Assembly: GCA_025061115.1 (NCBI GenBank)
Contig: JANZKC010000001.1
Span: 448,001 to 512,000, forward strand
DNA: 64,000 nucleotides
Direction: 5' to 3'
Origin: Candidatus Culexmicrobium cathedralense
GTDB lineage: Archaea > Thermoproteota > Methanomethylicia > Culexarchaeales > Culexmicrobiaceae
Each line of letters begins with the position of its first letter. The stretch's first letter is position 1. The notes under the pieces were generated by a model. It saw only the letters and a list, made by a program, of their open reading frames with translations. It was not told the DNA's origin and did no database searches. Positions 7,188 to 64,000 of the stretch are shown here, piece by piece. Both the position numbers and the translations under genes were made by a program.

Positions 7188-7999
7188 AAGCCTACTTAGC
7201 TGGATTTAAAGAGCTAAGCCTCGTAGACTACCCGAACAAGCCCTCCTGCGTTTTCTGGCTTGCAGGATGCAACTTTAGATGCCCATACTGCTACAATCAC
7301 TCCATGTGGAACATGAATAGTGGACAGCTAATTGAAATTAGCCAACTAAAAAGGCTAATGAAAAAAGCTTCAATAGTTTCGGAAGCATGCAAAGTCACAG
7401 GAGGAGAACCCACGCTTCAACCTGAAGTTCTAATAGAACTCGGATTGGAAGCCCACAAAATAGGCATGGAATTCGGAATAGATTCCAACGGCTCAAATCC
7501 AAGCGTAATCATAGACCTAATAAGCAAATATAACTGCCTAGACGCCATCGCCATAGACATCAAGGCGCCACTAAATCCAAAAGACTACAGCAAAGCAACT
7601 GGAATAAGCATTAGCAGCCAGCAAATCAACAAAATAAAGACATCACTTAAAGAGGCATTGAAATCTGAGATAAAACTCGAAATAAGAATTCCACTCATTC
7701 CATCAGTTAACGACTGCCCTGAAGCCCTTCAAAAAATAGCTTCTACACTTCTCGAGCTCGGCTACCTAGACAGGTGCAACAATAATGAAGCCTCAATAAT
7801 TATTGCAGAAGTAATAACAGATGAAAGTGCGGATCAAACATTAAAGAACGCAGAAAAATTGAGCCCACAAGAGCTAGTTAAGCTAGCCTCATCAATGAAG
7901 CTGCCAAACATATTCGTTAGGCATAGAAAATTAGGGGTAAAAGTACCCATTAGCCAAGCAATTAAAATTCTGAAATTGGAGTCCGATATCTATCCATGA
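7184..7999 (+). CDS. nrdG: Anaerobic ribonucleoside-triphosphate reductase activating enzyme (radical SAM)
   Basis: SLVDYP..S..F..GCNFRCPYCYN, TGGEPTLQ, IDSNGS, AIDIKAP; adjacent to nrdD. Confidence 0.85.
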   Translation: MKAYLAGFKELSLVDYPNKPSCVFWLAGCNFRCPYCYNHSMWNMNSGQLIEISQLKRLMKKASIVSEACKVTGGEPTLQPEVLIELGLEAHKIGMEFGIDSNGSNPSVIIDLISKYNCLDAIAIDIKAPLNPKDYSKATGISISSQQINKIKTSLKEALKSEIKLEIRIPLIPSVNDCPEALQKIASTLLELGYLDRCNNNEASIIIAEVITDESADQTLKNAEKLSPQELVKLASSMKLPNIFVRHRKLGVKVPISQAIKILKLESDIYP

Positions 8000-10226
8000 G
8001 CTCTCGCTTCTTAGCCTCATTCCAACCACTAACATCCTGATAGTAGCCAGTAACCCTACTCCACCATCGCACGTCATTGGAGCCGCAACTTGGGCACTCC
8101 TCATGAAGCATCGGGGAAACTCTTCCACACGAATTGCACACCGTCAAGTCCTTAGTGTAAGCGAAGTAGCCAACCTGCGTTTTCGTAGCAATTTTTTGCG
8201 TAACTCTAAGTAGCGCGTGAGGATCCGGATAAGCCTCGCCAAGCCAAATATGGAAAATATTTCCTCCAGATAGCAATGGGAAGAACTTGTGTTCAATTAA
8301 TAGCCGCCTACTTAACGGGATTTTAGCACCAACATAAACATGAGTGCCATTACTGTAATAGACTGGGACATCCCTCTCACCTTCAGCCAGCATTTTCCTA
8401 GCTAAATTGACATCCCCCTTAACAGTTGCTCTAGCCATAGAGCCAAACTCCCTAGACATGAGATCGCATACAGCTAGCCTCTGAGCACAGCTTTCTGCAG
8501 GCGTTCTAGCTAAAGCTAATTTAATGCCGTGCTTAGCCTCAAGCTCCCTCCTATACTTCTGCATGTAAAGTAGAACCTTAACAAGCAACTTGACAGCTTC
8601 GTCCGATTCATGCAGCTGATAGCCAGTATGCCACTGAGCCATCTCGTTTCCACCAACAAGCCCTATAACGAATACCAGCTCATTGAAATCAACTGCAGGG
8701 GGACCTCTCTCACCAGTTCTTGGATCCCTAGGCCTCTGAGTAGCAAATGGCAGCCTACCGTTTTTAATCATCAGATCCATCCAGTGCATTTTACACTTAA
8801 ACACCTCTACAGCCAAGTCCATTAACCTAAAGATCTCCTCTATTAGCTTATCATCATCGCCTCTAGCCTTATAGGCAGCCCTGGGAAGGTTGAGTGTTAC
8901 AACTTGCCAAGCACCCATGCTAAAGTGCTTTCCATTAACGAAGTACATTTTATCGTAAAACTCAGGGTCGCTATCAGGCGTCTCAGTAAAGGCGTAAGCG
9001 CAGCACTGATAGCAAGAAACGCCTTTGCCATAACCGCGATACGGAGGAATAGCATTATCAAAGTATGGGGTGCCAAACTTGGCAACAACCTTGTGAACTG
9101 CAAGCCACTCTTCATAGTACTCGTCATTAAAGAACTCGGGTGTAATGTAGGTCTCTAGCTTCGGAAAGTTAAAAGGCTTCCCCCAATAGTCACCTTCAAG
9201 AGCAACTTCATAAATTGCTCTAAAGAATAGACGAGCTTCATCTTCATAATCCCCATACGTATCTGGCCCCACTTGCCCCCTCAAAACTACAGGCTTATCC
9301 CTCCAAACCTTCGGTATGCCTGGAGAAAGTTGAATATTGGAGAAAACTAGTTGCCCTCCTCGAGCAACATAGCATTGAGTTAATTCGTAAAACATCATTT
9401 GCGCTAACTGCTTAATTTGCCGGTAACTTAAACCCCTCATAAACGGAGCTAAAAACACGTTGTAGTTGTAAAAGCCTTGTCCGCCAGCAAAGTTTGTTTG
9501 CGCAGCAGCCAAAACCTTAACTGAATGTAGAATGGCTACTTCAGGGTGCTTGGCGGGTCCAGCCACGCTAGTCTTAAATCCAGTTCCATCAGGCATCAAC
9601 CCATAATATAGGTAGTATCGCAGGTCGTGATCCTGACAGAACGGTCTAGTTCCGAAATACTCCAAATCATGTATGTGAATCTCGCCCTTCAAATGGGCGT
9701 CAGCCACGTGCATTGGAAGAAGTAGAAGATATTGCTCCTTAGAAAGCTTGTCAGCCTTCTTCTTATGCGAAGTCTCTGGATTAGGCTGTAAGTTAGCATT
9801 CTCCTTAGCTTCGAATCCTAATCCAATATCAATCAAGTACGAGTCATATACTGGCGTTCCAACCCTCGTTAGGACATTTCTATAAACAATGTACTGGGGC
9901 TTATCGGTGGACCATTCAAGCAAAATGTTGTTAACCACTTCACGTATTAATGGTGCACTTACAAAACGCGCATTCATGCTAAGTATTCTGCGCTCAGCCT
10001 CAAGCGCAATTGCCTCAGCCTCCTCTCTGGATATTGGAGGAATGTCAAAGAACTTCTCTGCCAACCGAGTTTCCTTTAGAAGCTGCTTGACGATCTTACT
10101 TCTATCCCAAGGCTCAAAAAAGCCGCTACTTGTTCTAACCATAATTCCATTTGGGGAAGCCGCTTTAACGGATTTTAACCAACCATTATACCTTTCAAGC
10201 CACTCAAGCTTACCCATAAATCTCAA
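7962..10226 (-). CDS. nrdD: Class III (anaerobic) ribonucleoside-triphosphate reductase
   Basis: N-terminal ATP cone, AHLKGEIHIHDL, GGQG, FNFPK, YQCC, TPAES, YYSNGTH, CNSC/CPSC Zn site, SRVTGYY glycyl-radical loop. Confidence 0.95.
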   Translation of the reverse strand: MRFMGKLEWLERYNGWLKSVKAASPNGIMVRTSSGFFEPWDRSKIVKQLLKETRLAEKFFDIPPISREEAEAIALEAERRILSMNARFVSAPLIREVVNNILLEWSTDKPQYIVYRNVLTRVGTPVYDSYLIDIGLGFEAKENANLQPNPETSHKKKADKLSKEQYLLLLPMHVADAHLKGEIHIHDLEYFGTRPFCQDHDLRYYLYYGLMPDGTGFKTSVAGPAKHPEVAILHSVKVLAAAQTNFAGGQGFYNYNVFLAPFMRGLSYRQIKQLAQMMFYELTQCYVARGGQLVFSNIQLSPGIPKVWRDKPVVLRGQVGPDTYGDYEDEARLFFRAIYEVALEGDYWGKPFNFPKLETYITPEFFNDEYYEEWLAVHKVVAKFGTPYFDNAIPPYRGYGKGVSCYQCCAYAFTETPDSDPEFYDKMYFVNGKHFSMGAWQVVTLNLPRAAYKARGDDDKLIEEIFRLMDLAVEVFKCKMHWMDLMIKNGRLPFATQRPRDPRTGERGPPAVDFNELVFVIGLVGGNEMAQWHTGYQLHESDEAVKLLVKVLLYMQKYRRELEAKHGIKLALARTPAESCAQRLAVCDLMSREFGSMARATVKGDVNLARKMLAEGERDVPVYYSNGTHVYVGAKIPLSRRLLIEHKFFPLLSGGNIFHIWLGEAYPDPHALLRVTQKIATKTQVGYFAYTKDLTVCNSCGRVSPMLHEECPSCGSNDVRWWSRVTGYYQDVSGWNEAKKRELMDRYRTPISEF

Positions 10227-42858: not shown

Positions 42859-43371
42859 CTAATAGTTTATGCCCTTAAGTGAAATAAGGTCCTTAGGATA
42901 CTTAACCTCAACTACTAAATTCACCACATCAGCCCTATCTATCAACTCCGGCGGAGCATATCTTCCAGTTAATACAACGTGCGTTTCCTCAGGAATCTTT
43001 GAAAGCAGCGAAAGCACGTCTTCAACTGAAATTAAATTAGCAGCTACAGCCAAATTCACCTCATCTAGAATGAGCAGGAAAGGCTTCTTTTCAATAGCTA
43101 TTTTCTCCGCAAAAATAAGGGCCTCCTTAGCCAAACGCCTATCCTCTTCACTTGGCTTTTTCAGATCAACCCAATCCGGCCTGCCAAACTGATATATTTC
43201 ATACTCTGGGCTCAACCTATCCTTCACAATGTACTCGCCGACATCTTTCCTCCCCTTCATGAATTGAATAACAACCACTTTAAGGCCGTGTCCAATGCAC
43301 CTCAAAGCTAAGCCAAGGGCACTAGTAGTTTTTCCAGCTCCAGTTCCAGTATAAAGGAATATGAAGCCCAT
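42859..43371 (-). CDS. cobO: Cob(I)alamin/cob(I)yrinate adenosyltransferase (CobO/BtuR type)
   Basis: YTGTGAGKTTSALG, IQFMKG, LILDE, VLTGR.AP. Confidence 0.92.
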   Translation of the reverse strand: MGFIFLYTGTGAGKTTSALGLALRCIGHGLKVVVIQFMKGRKDVGEYIVKDRLSPEYEIYQFGRPDWVDLKKPSEEDRRLAKEALIFAEKIAIEKKPFLLILDEVNLAVAANLISVEDVLSLLSKIPEETHVVLTGRYAPPELIDRADVVNLVVEVKYPKDLISLKGINY

Positions 43372-43381
43372 AATTAATCAC

Positions 43382-46300
43382 CTAAATCCTACAAACTCCC
43401 TTCGGGCATGAACCCGTATCCTCCGGGCCTAGCTCAATAACGCCTCGAGGCTTCTTCTTTGTCGGCTTCCCAATGTAAAGCACCTGCTCGCCCTTACTTC
43501 CATACCTATAAACGGTAATTCCCTTGCACTTCAACTCGTATGCTAGAATGAAAGCTCTCTTGACATCTTCAGGAGAAGCTTCATAACGCAAGTTAATGGT
43601 TTTAGACACAGCATTGTCGGTGAACTCTTGAAATGCAGCTTGCATCCTGACGTGCCAGTCAACATCAATATCCAACGCAGTTACGAAAATCCTCTTAATG
43701 TCTTCAGGCATGCCCTCCACGTACCTTATGGAGCCAACTCTGGCTATCTCCCGCATAAGTTCATCGCTATAGAGCCCTCGCTCCTTCAAGAACTCTTCAA
43801 AGACAGAGTTGACCTCAAATAAGCTCACTCCACCTAGAACTCTCCTAAAGAATGCCAAGGCAAATAGGGGCTCAATTCCACTTGAAGTTCCAGCTATTAT
43901 GCTAATGGTTCCAGTTGGAGCTATAGTAGTGGTCGTAGCATTCCTAATGCCATACTTTTTAATTTTAGCCCTAAGGTCATCCCACTTCAAAGTATACTGC
44001 TTCTCCTCATCATCAGCCTCAAAGGGGAAGCGCGGTTGATCGCCATCATATATTGAACCCTTAAATGCTGGAAAGCTGCCCCTCACCTTAGCCAAGTTTA
44101 TGGACTCAACCTTGCTGTAGTAATTTATGTACTCCATAATTCTCCTAGCTAAATTAAGCGCCTCCTCAGAGTCGTAAGGTATTTGAAGCTTAAATAGAAG
44201 CTCAGCCCAACCCATAACGCCAAGCCCAATTTTCCTAGTTAAAAGCGTCTTCTCCTCAACTTGCGGCAGCGGATAGTTATTCGCATCTATTACATTGTCC
44301 AGAAAGTGAACTGCAATTCTAACCACTTCCCTCAACTTCTTCCAATCAATTTCATATCTCCCATCCCTCCTACGCTTAACCATAAGTGAAAGATTCACCG
44401 AGCCTAGATTGCAAGATTCAAAGGGCAGTAAGGGCTGTTCTCCGCAATTGTGAACGATAAATCCATTTGCAATGAAGGAGTGGGTGAGAGGTTCTGTCAC
44501 ATCATAAACTGGCTCTTCACCAACATACTCAATCTTCTGCACCGTAACCTCGAACCTGCCACGATAGAATTTAGACTGAGATCTCCTGTGAAATTCTGAA
44601 ATCTTCCTCTCATCGCTAAATCCAATCTTTTCAATAAACCGTTCCCTACTGTCCCTTGAAATTACAAGTTCATAATAGTCTCCACCAACATATCTCCTCA
44701 CCTTCCCTTCTGAGTCGATGTATGCGGAGACTCTCTTCTTCGACCTTTTACGCTCATAGATTTTAGACTTTATTCCGAAGTTCAGCAATAATAATTGTAC
44801 ATCCTTCAGCAATCTTAGGGACGTTGAAGACAATCTTATTGATGACCCCTCTTCAGCCTTTCCTTGAACAGAGCCATCAGCAGTGAACAACCCTCTCAAA
44901 AAGCCTCTTACAGCAAATTCCGGAGCCATGAAGATACTCCATGGAACTCGCTTCTCCTCAGCCTTCCACTCGCCTACACCTAACTTCTTGAAGAACTCTA
45001 TGAATGCCTTGGCGTGATATGATAGATGATAAGTACCATTCCTACGCTTAACCGGCTTGACGCAGCCATACCACTTCGAAATTATCTCTCGAGCCCTCTT
45101 AAGCAAGTCTAATTTTTGACTTGAGAAGGTAAATCCAACTCTATCTTTCCTGAGCCACCCGCCCCCTATAAGTAGGCCAATGACGAAGCCGAGGTCTTCA
45201 GACCACTCTTTTGGCAAGTTTAGCTTCTTCCTCTTGGTCAGGTTATTTAACTTGTCAATTTCCTCCTTTATTGGTAGTTCAATTGAGTTAGAGAAGCATC
45301 CGCAACTTTGAATTAGCAGAGTGTCGTCCTCTTTCAATTCGCCTAGCTTCTTCCATCCACTTGGAGTTAAGAACATGTGGTCTATAGTTGCTTTAATCTC
45401 ATAACCTTCCCTTGTTATGAGCCTATAAACTGGCTTTATTCCGGTAAATACGTACCTAGTGGGCTTTGATTTTACGATGCCTCTGCTTTTAATAGCTCTT
45501 AAATCGACGATTAATGAGGTTGAAAGTGACTTGGGATTATTTCTAGTTAAATTCTCAATTGGTATCAAACCTTTTTCAGTGACTACTAATGTATCTCCAG
45601 TTACACATGGGTTAGTACTCTCTATTTCGCCGAGTTGAGGCGTTGGATTATGCTTGTTGATTCGGTCGATGAATACTAGGCCTGGATCTCCTGTTCTCCA
45701 AGCATTATAAACAATCATGTCGAAAAGGTATTTTGCATTTATCTTGCCTTGAGGCTCGCCTGTCCTCGGATTGATCAAGTTTATTTCCTTCTCCTCCTCA
45801 ACAGCCTTCATAAATTCATCCGTAACCGCTACCGAGATATTGAAGTTTGTCAGCACACCCTCCTTAGTCTTAGCATAAATGAAATCCATAATATCGGGGT
45901 GATCAACCCTTAAAATACCCATATTAGCACCGCGACGCTTATTATGAACTAAGATTCCATTTGCGACGAAACACCCTGATATTGTTTCTATGTCCATCGT
46001 ATATTTTCGATCTTCCTTTATTTCGACAACTCTTGTGTAGTAATATTTTGGATCACACAATTTGACTAACCTTTCATCTTCCTTAAGAAATGGAAATTCT
46101 TCTAAAAGTTTAATTAGGCGCTTACGAGTTAGATTTCTCCTATGTTTTTCATTCCTTGTAATGTAATGATAAATCGCTCTAAAGAATTTTTGATTAGCAC
46201 CACGCTTAGACCTTCCCTTGCCGCAACCTCTTCCAACAAAGCTATAATGAGACATCAGTATTCTTTCCGCATTTGGTATGACATCCACGTACTCAAACTT

Positions 46301-49300
46301 CTTTTCATGGAATCTCCTCAACAGCTTTTCATTTTTCTTCTCGGTTAGGAAGCCTATATGCTCAATGAATAACTTTATGCTTCTTTCAGGAATTATGGTC
46401 AGGTGATATATTGGTGATCTGCCGAACCTATTTTCACCCTTCTCATACTTCTTAATGGAGGAGACTATTCCTAAGCTTAAAAGCAACTGTTGAACTTCTC
46501 TGACTAATCTTTCTGATGACACTTGAAGCCTTGGATAACCATCTTCATGAACATCCCCATCACCCTCAAACAGCCCCCGCAAGAAGCCATAAGCAACTTC
46601 TTTTGATGACGTAAATATTTCTCTAGGTATGAAAGCTTCCCGAGAATTCTTTTTAATCCAATTCATGGACTTGAAAAATCTCTGCAAATCTACTGAGTAA
46701 AAAACCAAGTCAACATAACCTTCTTTTCTTCGCTTATAACCAACCTTTAAGTTGAAAACTTTCAGCATTAAGTCCTCTATTATCTTTTCAAGTTCCTTAT
46801 CATCATTTGAAACTGAGAAAATAAGTCTACCATCAGCGCTGATACAGCCATCAGACATATACAGACCAAGAATTTCAGCAAGTTCAGGAGTGATTCTTTC
46901 TGGAATTCTTATCTTATTTGCATTAAAATGCTGTTTTTCAATTCTTAGAAGAGGCGCATCTGGAAGATCAGGATGACCTCCAAGTACAACAACCAGCCAG
47001 TCACCAACCCTTATGTCTTGAGCCTCTTTCCATATTATTTCTCCTTCTTGAGAAACAACCGCAACTTTATGATTATACGTTACATCAAGTTCTAGACCAA
47101 GATCAGTTTTAATTTTCAAAACATCAGCCACACCATTATCCGCCGCCAAGAAAGCATGAATGAAAGCGTCTCCATCAAAGACAAGGTAATTAGTTGGATT
47201 TTCAGAGTGTGATGGGCAGTCAAGTAATTCAGCTAATGGCAGTATACCTTTATTCGTCCTAACCAAACTATCAACAGCTATACATCCACCCTGCTTAATG
47301 ACGTCGGTTGCAACGTCAAATATCCTCATGAAGCTTACCGGGCCGGATGCAACGCCCATAGTAGTTCTAACCACGTCGCCCTTCGGCCTGAGCCTTGAAA
47401 ATGAGAAGCCAGTGTTATGAACTATCATGAAGCCATTCTGTCCAGCTAGATATGTTTCGGTTTCATCAACCGTTAAGTCATACATAACCACCTTATCAGT
47501 ACCATGCAATCTTTCAATGCGTATAATAGGGACAGAATGTAACATTGCGTGTAACATAGTTCTTATCTTTTCAGCATCACTGAAGAATCCATTCCTCTCT
47601 AGGGCATCAGCTAGCTTAGTCATTAACATTTCAAATTTAACGGCACTGATCCCATGTCCCCACATCCATCTGTGAACCCATATCTTTGCGCCTCCGAGGA
47701 TCAATGGCTTCCTGTGCAATGAGGATACATTTATTCCCAATTTTTCTAAGAAGCCTCTAATCGTCTCAAAACTTAATTTTACACTTCTCCTATACGATGA
47801 CTTTCCAACTACTTTAAGCAATAAACTTGCTTTACGCTTTATACTCATTCTAGATGCAATCTCCCTGGCAAAATATGAAAATTCAGGTGAGCTCTCAACG
47901 CAAATTACGTAAAGTTCCTTCTTCTCTTTAGATCTCTTCGGCTTTCTAACTCTAAATCTTATCTTTAATCCCAGAGCAGTTAGCAGCAGTGCTAATTGCC
48001 TCATAACGCTATGTGAAGTACAAGTAATGCATAACCTCGCCCTATCCTTAGAAACTTCACCTTCAGCATCTATGAAACCAGCTATAAATGACAGAACAAC
48101 GCTCAAAGGCGACTTAAATATCTGCTCAGGTATCCTCCAAGCATCACCGTCAGTTGCTCTTAGATTTCTTAAAACGAAATCAATGACTCTCTTATCACAT
48201 GTTTGAAAAATCCACATGTCACATCTTTTCTCTTTGTAAATGCAGCCAACATCATCATTGAAGACTTCACTTAAAATGCTCTTGAGAAGTTCGAGAGGTT
48301 CCCTTTCACGATCGAAAGCTCTCACCCTATGCGGTTCAGCGCAACCGTCACCAATCAAGTACCCTATGGCCCACGCCAACTTCTCGGATAATTTGAAACC
48401 ATCAATTTTTTGATATTCAGTGAAAATCCAGTTGCTTGGTTTAGGTGGAAGTAGCAGTAAGTCCCCTTCCTTAAGTTCATCAGCCCTCTTTTCTACAATT
48501 TCGCCCCTCTCATTTACAACAATAAATGGATGCCATTCACTTACAACAACTTCTAAGCCATTTCCAGCTTTAATCTTAAGTAACTTATTTCGAGGAAGAA
48601 TGTACTTCCATACTCTTGTAACTTTTCTAAAGTTAACTCTATTATCGGTTTTATCGTAAGTCAAAACTCTAATGTCAAGATTTGAAACATCAATTGAAAC
48701 GGTCTCATCCGAATTTTTCAAATGTACTGGTATGAGGGGTTCAACAATGTTTTCAATTGGAGCTATTCCACAAACATTAGTGTAAATGTAGGTTCCCTTA
48801 GCTACACAACCACCTCCGCTCTTGTGAATTAAGGCGGCGTATTTTAGTGCATCGAATATGCTCTCTATAGAGTCTTCTACTGGAATTACGAAGCAGGCCG
48901 ACAATTGACCTAAGGGTGCACCTGCATTCATTAAGGTGGGAGAGTTTGGCAGGAAGTACTTGTTAACCATGATCTTGTAGAATGTATCTATGACGTCTTC
49001 GTAGAGCTCATCCCACTTCTCGTCAAGAAATCTGAGTAAGTCATTAAATGAAACCTTCATCTTACCCTCTTTGCCAAGCCTATTGTAAACTCTCTTCAGC
49101 ATTTCGAAGTCATACTCGTTTATAACAGCCCTCTTAAGCTTATAAGTAGGCTCTTCGGCTTGCCTCTTAGGCTGCCTACCAGCCTTATCGTAAACTTCAC
49201 TGTAGTAGAAAATGTCTACCAAGCCTACATGCCTAGCAACTCTCATGAACATTTGCTTTGGTGTTTCAATAACCTTGCCAGATTCGTCTTTAAGTAAATA

Positions 49301-49684
49301 TCTATTCTTCAAGACTGTTACAGCGTTTACAGACAACTTCATGTCGTCAACTACGCCAAGCATCTTCTTAATTTCCCTAATTTCACTCCTCTGCTGCCTG
49401 TAGAGAATGTAAGCTTTAGCCACTTCATAGAGACCATTTTTAACAAGTACTTTCTCCACAATGTCTTGAATCTCCTCTACGTGAGGAATCTTCTTATCCC
49501 CAAATTCAGACTCCAAAATTGCGACAACTTCATCAGTTAGCTTTGCAGCTAACTTCCTAGAGCCTGTTCCAACAGACTCCATAGCCTTCCAAATAGCTCT
49601 CTCAATTCTTTCCCTATCGAAAGCTACAACTCTTCCATCTCTCTTGATGACTTTTGATACTTTAGAATGCACATTAATCACCAC
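43382..49684 (-). CDS. nrdJ: Class II adenosylcobalamin-dependent ribonucleotide reductase with ATP cone and three inteins (800 aa extein)
   Basis: VIKRDG ATP cone, PNSPTLMNAG, LSACF, GGG|TG, RRGANM, TNP|CGE, CNLGS, TIAPTG, SKTINL, KGITVYR, C-terminal Cys pair. Confidence 0.97.
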   Translation of the reverse strand: MVINVHSKVSKVIKRDGRVVAFDRERIERAIWKAMESVGTGSRKLAAKLTDEVVAILESEFGDKKIPHVEEIQDIVEKVLVKNGLYEVAKAYILYRQQRSEIREIKKMLGVVDDMKLSVNAVTVLKNRYLLKDESGKVIETPKQMFMRVARHVGLVDIFYYSEVYDKAGRQPKRQAEEPTYKLKRAVINEYDFEMLKRVYNRLGKEGKMKVSFNDLLRFLDEKWDELYEDVIDTFYKIMVNKYFLPNSPTLMNAGAPLGQLSACFVIPVEDSIESIFDALKYAALIHKSGGGCVAKGTYIYTNVCGIAPIENIVEPLIPVHLKNSDETVSIDVSNLDIRVLTYDKTDNRVNFRKVTRVWKYILPRNKLLKIKAGNGLEVVVSEWHPFIVVNERGEIVEKRADELKEGDLLLLPPKPSNWIFTEYQKIDGFKLSEKLAWAIGYLIGDGCAEPHRVRAFDREREPLELLKSILSEVFNDDVGCIYKEKRCDMWIFQTCDKRVIDFVLRNLRATDGDAWRIPEQIFKSPLSVVLSFIAGFIDAEGEVSKDRARLCITCTSHSVMRQLALLLTALGLKIRFRVRKPKRSKEKKELYVICVESSPEFSYFAREIASRMSIKRKASLLLKVVGKSSYRRSVKLSFETIRGFLEKLGINVSSLHRKPLILGGAKIWVHRWMWGHGISAVKFEMLMTKLADALERNGFFSDAEKIRTMLHAMLHSVPIIRIERLHGTDKVVMYDLTVDETETYLAGQNGFMIVHNTGFSFSRLRPKGDVVRTTMGVASGPVSFMRIFDVATDVIKQGGCIAVDSLVRTNKGILPLAELLDCPSHSENPTNYLVFDGDAFIHAFLAADNGVADVLKIKTDLGLELDVTYNHKVAVVSQEGEIIWKEAQDIRVGDWLVVVLGGHPDLPDAPLLRIEKQHFNANKIRIPERITPELAEILGLYMSDGCISADGRLIFSVSNDDKELEKIIEDLMLKVFNLKVGYKRRKEGYVDLVFYSVDLQRFFKSMNWIKKNSREAFIPREIFTSSKEVAYGFLRGLFEGDGDVHEDGYPRLQVSSERLVREVQQLLLSLGIVSSIKKYEKGENRFGRSPIYHLTIIPERSIKLFIEHIGFLTEKKNEKLLRRFHEKKFEYVDVIPNAERILMSHYSFVGRGCGKGRSKRGANQKFFRAIYHYITRNEKHRRNLTRKRLIKLLEEFPFLKEDERLVKLCDPKYYYTRVVEIKEDRKYTMDIETISGCFVANGILVHNKRRGANMGILRVDHPDIMDFIYAKTKEGVLTNFNISVAVTDEFMKAVEEEKEINLINPRTGEPQGKINAKYLFDMIVYNAWRTGDPGLVFIDRINKHNPTPQLGEIESTNPCVTGDTLVVTEKGLIPIENLTRNNPKSLSTSLIVDLRAIKSRGIVKSKPTRYVFTGIKPVYRLITREGYEIKATIDHMFLTPSGWKKLGELKEDDTLLIQSCGCFSNSIELPIKEEIDKLNNLTKRKKLNLPKEWSEDLGFVIGLLIGGGWLRKDRVGFTFSSQKLDLLKRAREIISKWYGCVKPVKRRNGTYHLSYHAKAFIEFFKKLGVGEWKAEEKRVPWSIFMAPEFAVRGFLRGLFTADGSVQGKAEEGSSIRLSSTSLRLLKDVQLLLLNFGIKSKIYERKRSKKRVSAYIDSEGKVRRYVGGDYYELVISRDSRERFIEKIGFSDERKISEFHRRSQSKFYRGRFEVTVQKIEYVGEEPVYDVTEPLTHSFIANGFIVHNCGEQPLLPFESCNLGSVNLSLMVKRRRDGRYEIDWKKLREVVRIAVHFLDNVIDANNYPLPQVEEKTLLTRKIGLGVMGWAELLFKLQIPYDSEEALNLARRIMEYINYYSKVESINLAKVRGSFPAFKGSIYDGDQPRFPFEADDEEKQYTLKWDDLRAKIKKYGIRNATTTTIAPTGTISIIAGTSSGIEPLFALAFFRRVLGGVSLFEVNSVFEEFLKERGLYSDELMREIARVGSIRYVEGMPEDIKRIFVTALDIDVDWHVRMQAAFQEFTDNAVSKTINLRYEASPEDVKRAFILAYELKCKGITVYRYGSKGEQVLYIGKPTKKKPRGVIELGPEDTGSCPKGVCRI
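44447..45607 (-). mobile_element. Intein 3 in NrdJ (387 aa, residues 1360-1746) at the active-site Cys
   Basis: STNP|CVTGDT...ATIDH...VYDV...ANGFIVHN|CGEQ; GLLIGGG and RGLFTADG motifs. Confidence 0.93.
45941..47284 (-). mobile_element. Intein 2 in NrdJ (448 aa, residues 801-1248) with LAGLIDADG endonuclease and Lys at +1
   Basis: KQGG|CIAVDS...VTYNH...TMDI...ANGILVHN|KRRGANM; GLYMSDG and RGLFEGDG motifs. Confidence 0.92.
47414..48808 (-). mobile_element. Intein 1 in NrdJ (465 aa, residues 293-757) with LAGLIDADG homing endonuclease
   Basis: SGGG|CVAKG...MYDLTV...IVHN|TGFSF; GYLIGDG and AGFIDAEG motifs. Confidence 0.93.
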
Positions 49685-59857: not shown

Positions 59858-62800
59858 CTAAGTTGGGGTTGGCGGAGGAACTACCGCTACCCGCCGCCTC
59901 CTCCAAGCGTAGTACTCGTAAGCCACTAAGTAGACTATGATTGCAACCACTATTGGCAGGAGCACTACCTCGCCGAAGAACTCGGCAGTTCTAAATGGCC
60001 TGCCAAGAATCGTTGCAAATACGTCTAACCTGAACTCCTCGGTCATATCTCCAGTCAATGTTATTGACTTCTCATCTTCAATGCCTCTGTAATTGACGTG
60101 AATCGTGTAGCTTCCCTCTGGAAGCTCAACGGTAACTACACCTGACTCGTCAGTGACGACCTCCATCTCCACCGGCGAAATCGTCACAGTTGATGGGCCG
60201 AGGCCCTGCCCTCTAGCTCCCTTAACAACCACCGTTAACAGGTAGACGTTGGTTGAAGTGAAGTAGTATGTTCCAGTCTTATCGACATCTACAGAGTTTG
60301 GAGACACCGTTATTGGGCGGCCCATCCAAGTTACACTTACAACCTCCAGCGTACCAACTGGCACCTGCGTGAACAGTATCTCGCCGTTCTGGTCGGTTGT
60401 AGCTGAGTGCTCAGTGCCGTCCGGATACTTGACAGTGACGTCGGCAGCAGTCATAATTGTTCCTCTCTTAGTCTTTAAGTTGAACATCACGTCGTAGACC
60501 CTGCACTTAATTGGAAGCTCGACAATGTTCTTGTCAATGGTCATCTTGTAGTCGGTCAAGATGTCTATAACGCCATCAGTCCACTTCGCAGAAAGTATGT
60601 AGTCGCCCTTTGGCACGAGCAGAGCAGTGAACGTTCCGTCAACGCCAGTGTTGCCGCTAATCATGTAGTCAATGTCTCCTGCACCCACAAACGTGTAGAA
60701 CACTCCCTTCAAAGGCCTGTTAACGTCGTCGGTCAGCTTGATCGTCACATCATACACATCAGTGAATGCAGTGTAGAACACAGTTGGCGAAACAATCTTG
60801 TACTCGGTCATCTCCTTCTCATAGCTGTCATAAACGTTTACACCTAGCCATTGGGTCCTAATAGTATACTTGCCATCATCTGCTGCAAATGGCAGGTATA
60901 CATAGCCATGCTCGTCGACCCAGCCGAATGCTGCAACTGTGCCAGCGTCAGCATCACCGTAAGCTCTATACCTAACAGCATATACTAATGCCCTCTTGAC
61001 AGTTCCGAAATCATGATATAGCGGCCTACCGGTTGAACTTAGCATTTGGACACCAATGTAATAATCAAATGTTAGTTGTACTTGATGATCATCAGCTTTA
61101 CCCTCTTCAGCTAACTCTTTTACATCGACAGGTTTGTTAGCTTTTACGTCATCAGCGATCTTTGTCTTATTATAGATAGCTGATGGTAATTCGTCAGGCT
61201 TCGGCTCGTAGTAAGCCTTAAACAGGTACTTAGTTTCATTACCCCAGAATACTGTATCATCAAATCTTGCAACACCATTCTCATTAGTTGTAGATGAAGC
61301 TACGAATACATTAGCAGTGTCGCTTAGCGGAGATGTCCAATACACTTTAACCGTGTAACCTGCAAGTCCTTCGCCGCGCCAGTCTTTTACAACTGCAGTC
61401 ATATTGTAAGCTGCTAACTTAAAGTCGAATACCCTCGTAACGTTGTCATATGACCATACTTCGCCCCAACTAAACGGCATGAAGCCAGTGAAATTGTATA
61501 CGCCATAGTCACTCCAGTATGGCAAATCCTTAACCACTGGTTTGTCTTTGAATGTGCTTGAGCCATTAATGAATTCTCCACTCGTTGTCAAACAGCCAAC
61601 TGTAACATTTTCAGTTCCCGCTGGAGCATCCTTGGTTGTACCTGCAATAGTGTTAATAGTTATAGTGATTGGAGTTCCATTTACATCCTTTATACTCCAA
61701 ACTGGTATGTAAACAAGTGTTTCATCTGGAACTATTATCGTTATATTGTATACGTAAGCGTTCTCTCCTCTCGAGTAATCGTTGCCGCTGAATATTATAG
61801 CATATGCTTTGTCTTCAGGAATTACATTGCGATAATCTTCTGATGCATTTAGCCATGTCATGTTCAGCCCTAACCATGATACGTTGATCATTAAGTTGTA
61901 ACTGTTAATTATTTTGCTGTGTTTCCAGTCATATAGCTCAAATGTTACTGGGTATACTCTCATTTGTGCAGTTGCTACTGGATTTACAACGTCTGGGTCA
62001 GTTACTAATGGAACATGGACAGATCCTGTTCCGTTAAATACTCTTACTCCTGCCCAATATATTTCAAAGGTGTAGTTTTGTCCTCCAACGAAAAGGTGAC
62101 TTCCATTTATGCTATAGAACATTATTGAGTTATAAGCAGTAGTATTTCCGTAGGCTTCCTCGAAGTCGTGTACTGCTATTGATGCGTTTGCGTAGGGTAG
62201 GACTTCTGGCATTTCATTTCCAGTTATGTCGAGTAATTTGAGTATAAAGTCATAGATGTATACGTGGTGTGTTCCGGTATAGTTTTCTGCAGCTAATGTG
62301 AGCTTGTTTTCATATGGACCTACATATACATTGTCTTTGCCGCCGAAGTGCTTGTGCTTATCCTCGTGTGTATATGCTTTAATGGTTATTTCTATTCCTG
62401 CTGGTATTTGTGTGAAGTTTGCCCAACCATAGCCGTTTGTTGTGTTCCAGTCTTCGGTCCAAGTGCCAGTGTCGCCAGTTATTGTTGCGTTTCCTTCCCA
62501 GCTTAGCGTGACATTTATGCCTGCAATGCCATAGTCGTCAGTTCCCCACTTGACCATCCGTAGCTTAGCGTCTACGAAAGCGAACTTGAATGCAACTGCC
62601 TCGTAAATGTTGTCAGTTACATTGAATATGTCTGACATTCCATATGGCTTGACATGTAGGTTCTTGTATACTACACCTACATGCCAAACGCCACCTGGTA
62701 CCTGTATTAAGGTCAATGTGCCTGTTGCAGTAGCTGGAACTGTTGAGACTGCTCCAGATGGGTGTTCTAGAACTACTACTGCATTTGGAAGTGGGTTACC

Positions 62801-64000
62801 ATTTAGGTCAACCACTGTTAGGTGAGCATCATATACTTCACATACTAAATTGTAGGTTATTATTTGGTCATAATCATCTTTGACAATTTCTTCATCAACG
62901 TAGAAGTCAACCGCTCCATAAGTTGTGGAGGCATTTTCAACTGTAAATGTTACGGACTTAACTTTAACCCATGATGCTGGATCCTCTGGAGTTATTGACC
63001 AGTAAACTTCAATTTTAGTATCACCGAATGGAATGTAACCTGCAGCCTTTCTTCCTGTTAAAGTCACATATTTACTAGTTGGAGGATCTTCAGATACTAA
63101 TGGTGGCAGTTGGATGAGGCCTTCAGACTCATCGCTTCTAGTGTTAAATGATATGAGGTTTGGCCATGTAATTACAACTTTAGCGTTTAGTAGTTTGCCT
63201 GCAGTTGGTCTTTTATCGAGTAAAGTTACATTAAATGGCACTAGCTGGCAATATACTTTTAATCCGTCATCGCTGTAATCAGATGGGTCATCAAGTATTG
63301 TTGTATTTACTTGAATCTCGTGTGTTAGCCAGTATACAGTTAATACTGACGGTACATTTGGATATTGATCTATTGAAACTTCGCCATTTTCAGTTGCTAA
63401 TGCTGTTGCCAATAATTTTTCTGGATTTTCCTTATCGTTTAGTGAAACTTTCACTATGCTGTATCCTGACGTTGTTGATTTTAGTGGATTTCCTAACCAG
63501 TCGTATAGCGTTATGTATAGTGGATAAACATCTGTGGAAACGTTGAAGTATCCAACACCTTCACTTGGAATTTCGATGTCTGCCTCTGCACCCACTTCAG
63601 TTGGCTTGGATATCTTAAGTATAACGGCGTCTTCTTTAATGTCCCCTTCTGGAGAATATCCTTCTACAATTGTGCCGTCGAACTTATTTACATCCCGCAG
63701 TACAAGGTACTCATAGTCCCAGTATACTTTTAATGTCCAATTGCCTTTTGACCAACTTACATCAATTGGTATTCGAGCAGTTAGATTTAATGACTGATCG
63801 TCAGATACCAGATATCCGGATACAGAATATATCTTGTCTGTGTAATTGTAGTAGAATGTTACTTTATGATACTTTAGCGTTCTATCGCCGTAGTCTGTTG
63901 CTGTGAGGTTAACCTCCCAGACAGACGTATAAATGTTCGTTTCATTAATATTTGATAGTTCATTCCCATAGATGGTGCTGTTTTCATAAACTGTAAAAGC
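59858..64000 (-). CDS. Very large cell-surface/S-layer-like glycoprotein with tandem beta-sandwich (carboxypeptidase regulatory-like) repeats; 5' end outside window (>=1380 aa)
   Basis: No stop between 63595 and 64000 by manual translation; repeated D..G.PL..A.V...TD..G motifs; many N-x-S/T sequons; C-terminal TM + RRRR. Confidence 0.85.
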   Translation of the reverse strand, partial: AFTVYENSTIYGNELSNINETNIYTSVWEVNLTATDYGDRTLKYHKVTFYYNYTDKIYSVSGYLVSDDQSLNLTARIPIDVSWSKGNWTLKVYWDYEYLVLRDVNKFDGTIVEGYSPEGDIKEDAVILKISKPTEVGAEADIEIPSEGVGYFNVSTDVYPLYITLYDWLGNPLKSTTSGYSIVKVSLNDKENPEKLLATALATENGEVSIDQYPNVPSVLTVYWLTHEIQVNTTILDDPSDYSDDGLKVYCQLVPFNVTLLDKRPTAGKLLNAKVVITWPNLISFNTRSDESEGLIQLPPLVSEDPPTSKYVTLTGRKAAGYIPFGDTKIEVYWSITPEDPASWVKVKSVTFTVENASTTYGAVDFYVDEEIVKDDYDQIITYNLVCEVYDAHLTVVDLNGNPLPNAVVVLEHPSGAVSTVPATATGTLTLIQVPGGVWHVGVVYKNLHVKPYGMSDIFNVTDNIYEAVAFKFAFVDAKLRMVKWGTDDYGIAGINVTLSWEGNATITGDTGTWTEDWNTTNGYGWANFTQIPAGIEITIKAYTHEDKHKHFGGKDNVYVGPYENKLTLAAENYTGTHHVYIYDFILKLLDITGNEMPEVLPYANASIAVHDFEEAYGNTTAYNSIMFYSINGSHLFVGGQNYTFEIYWAGVRVFNGTGSVHVPLVTDPDVVNPVATAQMRVYPVTFELYDWKHSKIINSYNLMINVSWLGLNMTWLNASEDYRNVIPEDKAYAIIFSGNDYSRGENAYVYNITIIVPDETLVYIPVWSIKDVNGTPITITINTIAGTTKDAPAGTENVTVGCLTTSGEFINGSSTFKDKPVVKDLPYWSDYGVYNFTGFMPFSWGEVWSYDNVTRVFDFKLAAYNMTAVVKDWRGEGLAGYTVKVYWTSPLSDTANVFVASSTTNENGVARFDDTVFWGNETKYLFKAYYEPKPDELPSAIYNKTKIADDVKANKPVDVKELAEEGKADDHQVQLTFDYYIGVQMLSSTGRPLYHDFGTVKRALVYAVRYRAYGDADAGTVAAFGWVDEHGYVYLPFAADDGKYTIRTQWLGVNVYDSYEKEMTEYKIVSPTVFYTAFTDVYDVTIKLTDDVNRPLKGVFYTFVGAGDIDYMISGNTGVDGTFTALLVPKGDYILSAKWTDGVIDILTDYKMTIDKNIVELPIKCRVYDVMFNLKTKRGTIMTAADVTVKYPDGTEHSATTDQNGEILFTQVPVGTLEVVSVTWMGRPITVSPNSVDVDKTGTYYFTSTNVYLLTVVVKGARGQGLGPSTVTISPVEMEVVTDESGVVTVELPEGSYTIHVNYRGIEDEKSITLTGDMTEEFRLDVFATILGRPFRTAEFFGEVVLLPIVVAIIVYLVAYEYYAWRRRRVAVVPPPTPT

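Follow-up and report, generated by a model that had tools for sequence, protein, structure and literature searches.

Which residue follows an intein is part of how inteins are recognised, since the working definition of the element calls for Cys, Ser or Thr where the C-extein begins (position +1); what, then, is to be made of an intein with intact splicing motifs that is followed by a lysine? This question is raised by a stretch of 64,000 nucleotides (hereafter the window) from Candidatus Culexmicrobium cathedralense (assembly GCA_025061115.1, contig JANZKC010000001.1, positions 448,001 to 512,000), in which nrdJ, a gene for a ribonucleotide reductase (RNR) precursor, carries three inteins. 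The second of these (intein 2, Table 1) lies at the site QGG/KRRGA (slashes mark splice junctions), and an initial annotation, made from the letters alone, had singled it out as an intact intein that is followed by a non-nucleophile and might splice in a non-canonical way. That claim holds and is strengthened: K, R, I or V at +1 marks a whole clade of inteins. We consider the chances evenly divided that true inteins of a widespread, mobile lineage, whose hosts are Asgard, DPANN, Thermoplasmata-like and other archaea as well as some Chloroflexota, dispense with a side-chain nucleophile at +1 when they splice an essential enzyme, the amine attacking the Cys1 thioester directly and so joining Gly to Lys, Arg, Ile or Val.

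Is the element an intein at all? On the minus strand its junctions read CAG GGT GGA/TGT ... GTT CAT AAT/AAG CGT CGC GGT GCT, i.e., QGG/C...VHN/KRRGA (with wider flanks, KQGG/C...LVHN/KRRGA), which agrees in reading and coordinates with the initial annotation, including AAG at +1. The motifs described there as intact are all present: the HINT blocks of a class 1 intein (C1, T69-Y-N-H72, D431 and H447-N448) and a nested endonuclease, common in such inteins and not obligatory, with both of its LAGLIDADG motifs. In a class 1 intein the C-extein would also begin with Cys, Ser or Thr, and here it begins with Lys. Pfam profiles find Intein_splicing and LAGLIDADG_3 (two stretches) in intein 2, and the top structure matches of its AlphaFold2 model (built from a 40-row alignment; pLDDT 92, pTM 0.92) are 7QSS, 7QSU, 1DQ3, 7QST and 2CW7, followed by PI-SceI entries, all of them solved endonuclease-bearing inteins (Foldseek E-values 2.5e-29 to 5.6e-22, TM-score up to 0.73). 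A shifted boundary that would place Cys, Ser or Thr at +1 was considered and rejected: no register does so, the downstream residues being K-R-R-G-A-N-M-G, and the intein-less sequence QGG-KRRGA has an equal residue count. Its fold, its motifs, its endonuclease, the site in the host gene and its mobility (see below) all make intein 2 an intein.

The host gene is otherwise undamaged, as had also been claimed. It forms a single open frame of 2100 codons with no internal stop, in which Pfam finds three stretches each of Intein_splicing and LAGLIDADG_3, and its exteins match Ribonuc_red_lgC (PF02867, 6e-136), Ribonuc_red_lgN (PF00317, the all-alpha N-domain) and the ATP-cone (PF03477), i.e., the reductase barrel and the N-terminal domains are present and the frame is intact apart from the inteins. 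One homologue is labelled an adenosylcobalamin-dependent reductase by its source, and the gene probably encodes a class II (adenosylcobalamin) reductase, for which cobalamin dependence is predicted.

A simpler account of the lysine would be an error of sequencing or assembly, or a dead allele heading for loss, AAG being one base from the Thr codon ACG; the genome is a metagenome-assembled genome (MAG) with 7.65% estimated contamination, and other reductases are present in it. Contigs from four public runs (X1-X4) span positions 45938-45940 with zero differences there, a check that rests on assembled (Logan) contigs, from which minor variants could escape. Run X1 is possibly the source of the window DNA and the other three are other samples; their contigs differ from the window nearby (45914, 45971) and have the same AAG codon. 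Contigs of other organisms in the same runs continue from the C-extein straight into ...KQGG, with Lys, Arg, Val or Thr at the +1 position (read by eye from loose ends), which shows that the same habitats harbour alleles that have a non-nucleophile there and no intein.

Does the lysine recur? A word-indexed search with the intein and its flanks gave 120 clusters at 90% identity, every one of them with an intein at the QGG site, and with the best 150 representatives from an exhaustive search of 50%-identity clusters the set came to 262 proteins besides the query. Both junctions of an intein at QGG/xRRGA could be located in 174 of the 262; the remaining 88 have inteins at other sites, are truncated or have no intein at the QGG site. 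Non-nucleophiles recur, which the initial annotation had named as support: the +1 residue is K in 94 (including the window's own protein, P0002), R in 18, I in 12 and V in 2, as against T in 30 and S in 18, i.e., K/R/I/V in 126/174 and T/S in 48/174. Species-representative genomes scanned with the pattern His-Asn-x-Arg-Arg-Gly-Ala-Asn-Met-Gly yielded at least 119 loci, and among those listed the +1 residues are T (73), S (8), K (19), R (15), I (3) and V (1). All six Arg codons occur at +1 in these listed loci (CGC 6, CGT 5, CGA 1, CGG 1, AGA 1, AGG 1), and the four CGN codons, which sit two changes from any Thr codon, account for 13 of the 15. By way of control, HN/x junctions at seven other RNR insertion sites of the same proteins have C, S or T at +1 in 86/86 cases (these junctions were located by motif, and unusual flanks fall outside the count), and the same motif-based tally at the QGG site gives K/R/I/V in 131/180. 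With the assemblies in agreement, K/R/I/V at +1 in 126 related proteins and at least 38 species genomes, Arg codons remote from Thr, a 2100-aa frame that is open with every motif intact, and three complete genomes in which no reductase was found besides that of the intein-bearing gene (see below), an error or a dead allele, which had been entertained as one reading, is highly improbable and we reject it, and editing with it.

The hosts of these loci, by record titles and among the matches listed, include Heimdall-, Hod- and Hermodarchaeota, Aenigmatarchaeota, Woesearchaeota, Nanoarchaeota, Thermoplasmata, Methanomassiliicoccales, Methanoperedens and Thermococci, together with a few Anaerolineae/Caldilineae, and the non-nucleophile intein lineage appears to cross the boundary between archaea and bacteria. 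Junctions of the forms FLVHN/RRRGA and FLIHN/RRRGA (loci L016, L039, L055 and L032) were seen in MAGs titled Anaerolineae, Caldilineae and Candidatus Subteraquimicrobium. Viral contigs scanned with the junction pattern gave two giant-virus MAG contigs only (L162, L163), both with Ser at +1 and no carrier of a non-nucleophile among them; their intein, at the same reductase site, has Val and not Ser/Thr three residues from its end.

For the phylogeny, the 174 inteins were thinned to 131 rows by removing near-duplicates that share the +1 residue. FastTree separates 46 T/S rows from 85 others (84 K/R/I/V and a single Ser, P0129) with support 97; nucleophile and non-nucleophile exchange only twice on this tree, and K, R, I and V swap several times within the clade. 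The same two changes are recovered by IQ-TREE from 53 rows (every third K/R/I/V and every second T/S row, three very long branches dropped; LG+G4, short search). Both results are read on an unrooted intein tree, which leaves the direction of the +1 change undefined, and on them the inteins with K/R/I/V at +1 are one lineage. The exceptional P0129 reads KQG/C...LVHN/SFRRGA, its junction apparently one residue off the host loop, and may be a return to a nucleophile via an indel.

Within this clade the residues of both junctions are strikingly constant: Cys1 (84/84), Thr (84/84) and His (80/84) of block B, His447 and Asn448 (84/84 each), and Asp or Glu (67 and 15 of 84) at Asp431 of block F. Because Cys1, block B and His-Asn are conserved across the clade, there is selection on the residues for an N-junction thioester and for Asn cyclisation at the C-junction. 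The endonuclease looks active in the clade as well, to judge from motif 1 (Gly140 84/84, Asp145 80/84) and motif 2 (Asp242 81/84, Gly243 82/84). Set against its T/S sister, the clade differs at a few positions: Arg9 (75/84) is not among the four commonest residues at that position in the 46 sister rows, Val stands three residues from the intein end (position -3) in 77/84 as against 2/46 in the sister, which has Ser/Thr there, and block F no longer has its His-Thr pair (position 437 G23/A18/E15/S13 vs H33/N11 in the sister; position 438 variable vs T35). The roles that these residues may play are conjectural, and the pattern is compatible with a re-tuned active site.

The same interchange of residues bears on another reading offered by the initial annotation, in which the Lys epsilon-amine attacks the thioester to give a branched Gly-Lys isopeptide. 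Lys is the commonest +1 residue; however, the 18 Arg, 12 Ile and 2 Val belong to the same clade of closely related inteins and are interleaved with Lys on the tree, chemistry peculiar to Lys could not work for them, and the product would not be a normal reductase chain. We hold this to be the least credible of all the readings, with next to no probability. K, R, I and V replace one another inside the clade, and the +1 side chain is therefore irrelevant.

Where did the lysine come from? Among 60 other genomes of the same class that we searched, 22 matched the C-extein segment, and 20 of these 22 read KQGG/KRRGA with no intein, in line with the earlier claim that QGGKRRGA is a normal intein-less NrdJ sequence; of the remaining two, a genome of the same family has the intein, and in the other the locus is cut and no motif was seen. 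The empty alleles include that of a genome of the same genus (96% extein identity) and one of the same family (91%), and the flanking loop residues are identical with and without the intein. Compared with the same-genus allele (L139), the insertion is in frame, as in class 1 inteins, and measures exactly 1344 bases between GGA and AAG. The flanks match this allele at 86/90 bases on the N-extein side (47285-47374) and at 69/90 on the C-extein side (45850-45940), an inequality that could reflect a homing co-conversion tract or chance. In a sample of 300 other genomes of the phylum, a single one (G231) has an intein that matches over its full length at the QGG site, with 45% identity. On the alleles compared, Lys is the host's native residue at QGG/x (the lineage as a whole occupies QGG/xRRGA in hosts whose own x is Lys, Arg, Ile or Val), and the pattern of presence and absence is that of a putative homing element that entered an allele which never had a +1 nucleophile. 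Run X1 offers an observation of its own at a loose end at 47286, where two contigs (160 bases, depth 7-11) match 38 N-extein bases with 2 mismatches and then run straight into K-R-R-G-A-N-M-G-I; because they pass directly from N-extein to KRRGANMGI, an intein-less allele of a close relative coexists in that sample.

Do the hosts need a working product from the interrupted gene? The 38 species genomes with K/R/I/V junctions (among the matches listed) were searched for both reductase catalytic families, Ribonuc_red_lgC and NrdD. In 25 of them every Ribonuc_red_lgC match falls within one intein-bearing gene (sometimes split over contigs) and no NrdD was found; of the other 13, NrdD is present in nine and additional full-length reductase genes in three, the last being ambiguous. 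Record titles mark three of the 25 as complete, namely two Heimdallarchaeum chromosomes, one of 3.1 Mb and one of 3.3 Mb, and a 0.77-Mb genome of a nanoarchaeote (Nanoarchaeota), and their single reductase frames of 2564, 2498 and 1664 aa have no stops and read QGG/C...HN/R or K. These hosts appear to depend on the intein-bearing gene and, because it is the only RNR found in 25/38 genomes, a working enzyme must be made from it. The Heimdallarchaeum frames (L136, L137) also hold a further intein that ends in Y-V-S-N/S, with Ser-Asn for His-Asn.

How might such an intein splice? According to a review, Cys, Ser or Thr at +1 acts as nucleophile in steps 2 and 4 of the canonical pathway (PMC4031507), and, because intein 2 is followed by no side-chain nucleophile, canonical transesterification (step 2) and the branched intermediate are impossible. 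For type A bacterial intein-like domains (BILs), the same review describes a proposed route of N-terminal thioester, Asn cyclisation and free-amine attack (PMC4031507). We postulate such a route for intein 2 and incline slightly towards it: an N-S acyl shift at Cys1 would yield a Gly-thioester, cyclisation of the terminal Asn would release the C-extein, and the freed alpha-amine of the +1 residue would attack the thioester to leave a normal Gly-Lys peptide bond, with the intein, and a reductase barrel that has already folded, keeping the amine close to the thioester. Alpha-amine aminolysis had been among the initial readings, and we favour it because Cys1/Thr/His and His-Asn are kept, the +1 side chain is indifferent and a product is needed; the aminolysis step and the ligation itself are what we infer, by analogy. 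We also count the adenosylcobalamin-forming gene directly downstream of nrdJ in its favour, and the invariant Gly at -1 would, by general chemistry, give an unhindered thioester.

A number of points weigh against aminolysis. The conservation of Cys1 and the terminal Asn would be equally expected if both junctions were merely cleaved, and the ligated product is a deduction from sequences. By analogy, aminolysis may be inefficient, since cleavage products are described as dominant in type A BILs (PMC4031507), and beta-branched Ile or Val at +1 would present a hindered amine. The 38 genomes are for the most part MAGs and incomplete, and the 0.77-Mb Nanoarchaeota might take deoxynucleotides from a host; incompleteness and scavenging weaken single cases and not the two Heimdallarchaeum chromosomes. 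Finally, the window's own genome has two NrdD genes, which, alongside nrdJ, give the organism at least two reductase classes, as well as a partial second reductase of class I/II type (G000:C11:4858-5859, L002/L161), a 377-aa frame ended by the contig end on a 5.9-kb contig, with 56% identity to the window C-extein; it may be a paralogue or stem from the contamination of the MAG. Because the NrdD genes and this partial reductase are present, the organism need not rely on NrdJ.

The first of these points leads to the principal rival, also raised by the initial annotation, in which thioester hydrolysis and Asn cyclisation free the intein and leave the exteins unjoined, as a two-chain reductase held together by the barrel fold with a nick in the QGG/KRRGA loop. 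The conserved Cys1, block B and terminal His-Asn fit this as well as they fit splicing, and the dominance of cleavage in type A BILs speaks for it too. A reductase of two polypeptides can, moreover, be fully active, as described for NrdA-a/NrdA-b of phage Aeh1, an enzyme that is likewise interrupted by a mobile endonuclease element and is still active (PMC3045599). Unlike intein 2, however, the Aeh1 gene is split at the DNA level and at another place, and its products need added assembly tails for activity (PMC3045599); neither HINT domain nor protein-level processing is involved there. The intein is also gained and lost within a genus, so that hosts would have to bear a sudden nick in what is often their sole reductase, and a loop that is the same with and without the intein gives no sign of adaptation to a nick. 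We take the intein to interrupt the loop that relays the specificity signal from one to the other of the allosteric and catalytic sites, where continuity of the chain would presumably be expected. Cleavage alone is kept as a lesser rival, one that we regard as rather unlikely.

More doubtful still is ligation by another route, in which a trans-acting factor or an unrecognised nucleophile joins or processes the exteins. The departures from the T/S sister at Arg9, at position 437 of block F (His lost) and at position -3 (Val) would be compatible with it, and nothing direct speaks for it. Against it, a mobile intein whose hosts belong to unrelated archaeal phyla, and in part to Chloroflexota, is unlikely to depend on a host factor, and the splicing blocks showed no additional conserved Cys, Ser or Thr peculiar to the clade, a clade-specific Cys147 falling in LAGLIDADG motif 1. 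We consider such a route improbable, and return to aminolysis as the reading that we prefer.

How does intein 2 relate to known systems? With class 1 LAGLIDADG inteins, such as TliVMA (7QSS) and PI-PfuI of the Pyrococcus reductase (1DQ3), and with the T/S sister clade at QGG/xRRGA it shares the fold, blocks A, B, F and G with Cys1, TxxH, Asp and His-Asn, and a nested endonuclease; like them it interrupts an essential enzyme in frame where the sequence is conserved, and its presence and absence are sporadic. It differs from class 1 inteins in the missing Cys/Ser/Thr at +1, and its clade differs from the sister in having no conserved block F His-Thr pair and in Val for Ser/Thr three residues from the end. 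BILs, reportedly first described by Dassa et al. in 2004, are small bacterial domains with no endonuclease; the proteins in which they occur are variable and often secreted, and they are not known as mobile elements inserted into housekeeping enzymes at conserved positions. Compared with BILs so described, intein 2 is unlike them in its 448 aa with LAGLIDADG motifs, its conserved housekeeping site in a reductase and its mostly archaeal distribution; it is like type A BILs, as a review defines them, in its N-terminal Cys, C-terminal His-Asn and lack of a +1 nucleophile (PMC4031507). The pretoxin-HINT profile (PF07591) has no match in the nrdJ protein at E <= 0.001, and by sequence and fold intein 2 clusters with true inteins; akin to a type A BIL in its proposed chemistry, it is not one.

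Class 3 inteins are recognised by the lack of a nucleophile at position 1 and by Cys at block F position 4, in a Trp-Cys-Thr motif. In the clade of intein 2, Cys1 is invariant and at the block F position where class 3 has Cys, 67 of the 84 rows have Asp and 15 have Glu. The resemblance to class 3-type inteins lies elsewhere: these are natural lineages, each thought in a review's account to be of single origin, that splice despite one missing canonical nucleophile (PMC4031507). They have no N-terminal nucleophile and keep Cys/Ser/Thr at +1, whereas the clade of intein 2 shows the reverse.

In the full-text literature that we searched, intein registries, survey supplements and most subscription papers lying outside the search, there is no report of a true intein lacking a +1 nucleophile; a preprint on non-canonical phage inteins concerns endonuclease architecture and not position +1. 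An intein of this kind contradicts the textbook requirement, and natural sequences in their hundreds support the argument. The +1 requirement is also the main practical limit of intein protein engineering, as the residue stays in every ligated product. If our reading is true, splicing with no nucleophile, so far tied to the cleavage-dominated BILs, would be used by true mobile inteins, which would explain how an intein colonises alleles with no nucleophile at the target site; inteins would then have a fourth class by mechanism, nature a protein ligase that leaves no scar, and traceless ligation a starting point. If the junctions are only cleaved, the outcome would be a natural two-chain reductase made by protein-level processing, likewise with no report in the literature searched.

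Table 1 Features of the nrdJ gene, of intein 2 and of related genes of the same contig (window positions unless stated otherwise)
Feature	Coordinates	Strand	Basis
nrdJ-type class II ribonucleotide reductase precursor (predicted), 2100 aa, three inteins	43382..49684	-	open frame, translation, Pfam
Intein 1, residues 293-757, SGGG/C...VHN/TGFSF, canonical +1 Thr	47414..48808	-	translation, Pfam
Intein 2, 448 aa, residues 801-1248, HINT with nested LAGLIDADG endonuclease, site QGG/KRRGA	45941..47284	-	translation, Pfam, AlphaFold2
Intein 3, residues 1360-1746, STNP/C...VHN/CGEQ, canonical +1 Cys	44447..45607	-	translation, Pfam
Gly-Gly codons at -2/-1, N-extein end	47285..47290	-	sequence
Cys1 of intein 2, TGT	47282..47284	-	sequence
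Block B T-Y-N-H, intein residues 69-72 (T69, H72)	47069..47080	-	sequence
LAGLIDADG motif 1, AEILGLYMSDG	46847..46879	-	sequence
LAGLIDADG motif 2, FLRGLFEGDG	46556..46585	-	sequence
Blocks F and G, T-M-D-I-E ... F-V-A-N-G-I-L-V-H-N, terminal His-Asn (D431, H447-N448)	45941..46000	-	sequence
+1 codon AAG = Lys, first C-extein residue, not Cys/Ser/Thr	45938..45940	-	sequence
ATP:corrinoid adenosyltransferase (CobA/BtuR family)	42859..43371	-	Pfam PF02572, E 8.7e-47
NrdD, class III anaerobic reductase with ATP-cone	7962-10226	-	Pfam, E 3.8e-148
Second NrdD, same contig, outside the window	G000:C1:807897-809462		

Among the neighbouring genes, that for the corrinoid adenosyltransferase begins 10 bases past the nrdJ stop. 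ATP:corrinoid adenosyltransferases make adenosylcobalamin, the cofactor of class II RNR, and the pair looks like an operon that joins an enzyme with the maker of its cofactor. Farther away, an open reading frame of 1245 aa at 59858-63595 on the minus strand probably encodes a surface protein, to judge from its CarboxypepD_reg, Ig-like and prealbumin-like domains, and bears no relation to the intein.

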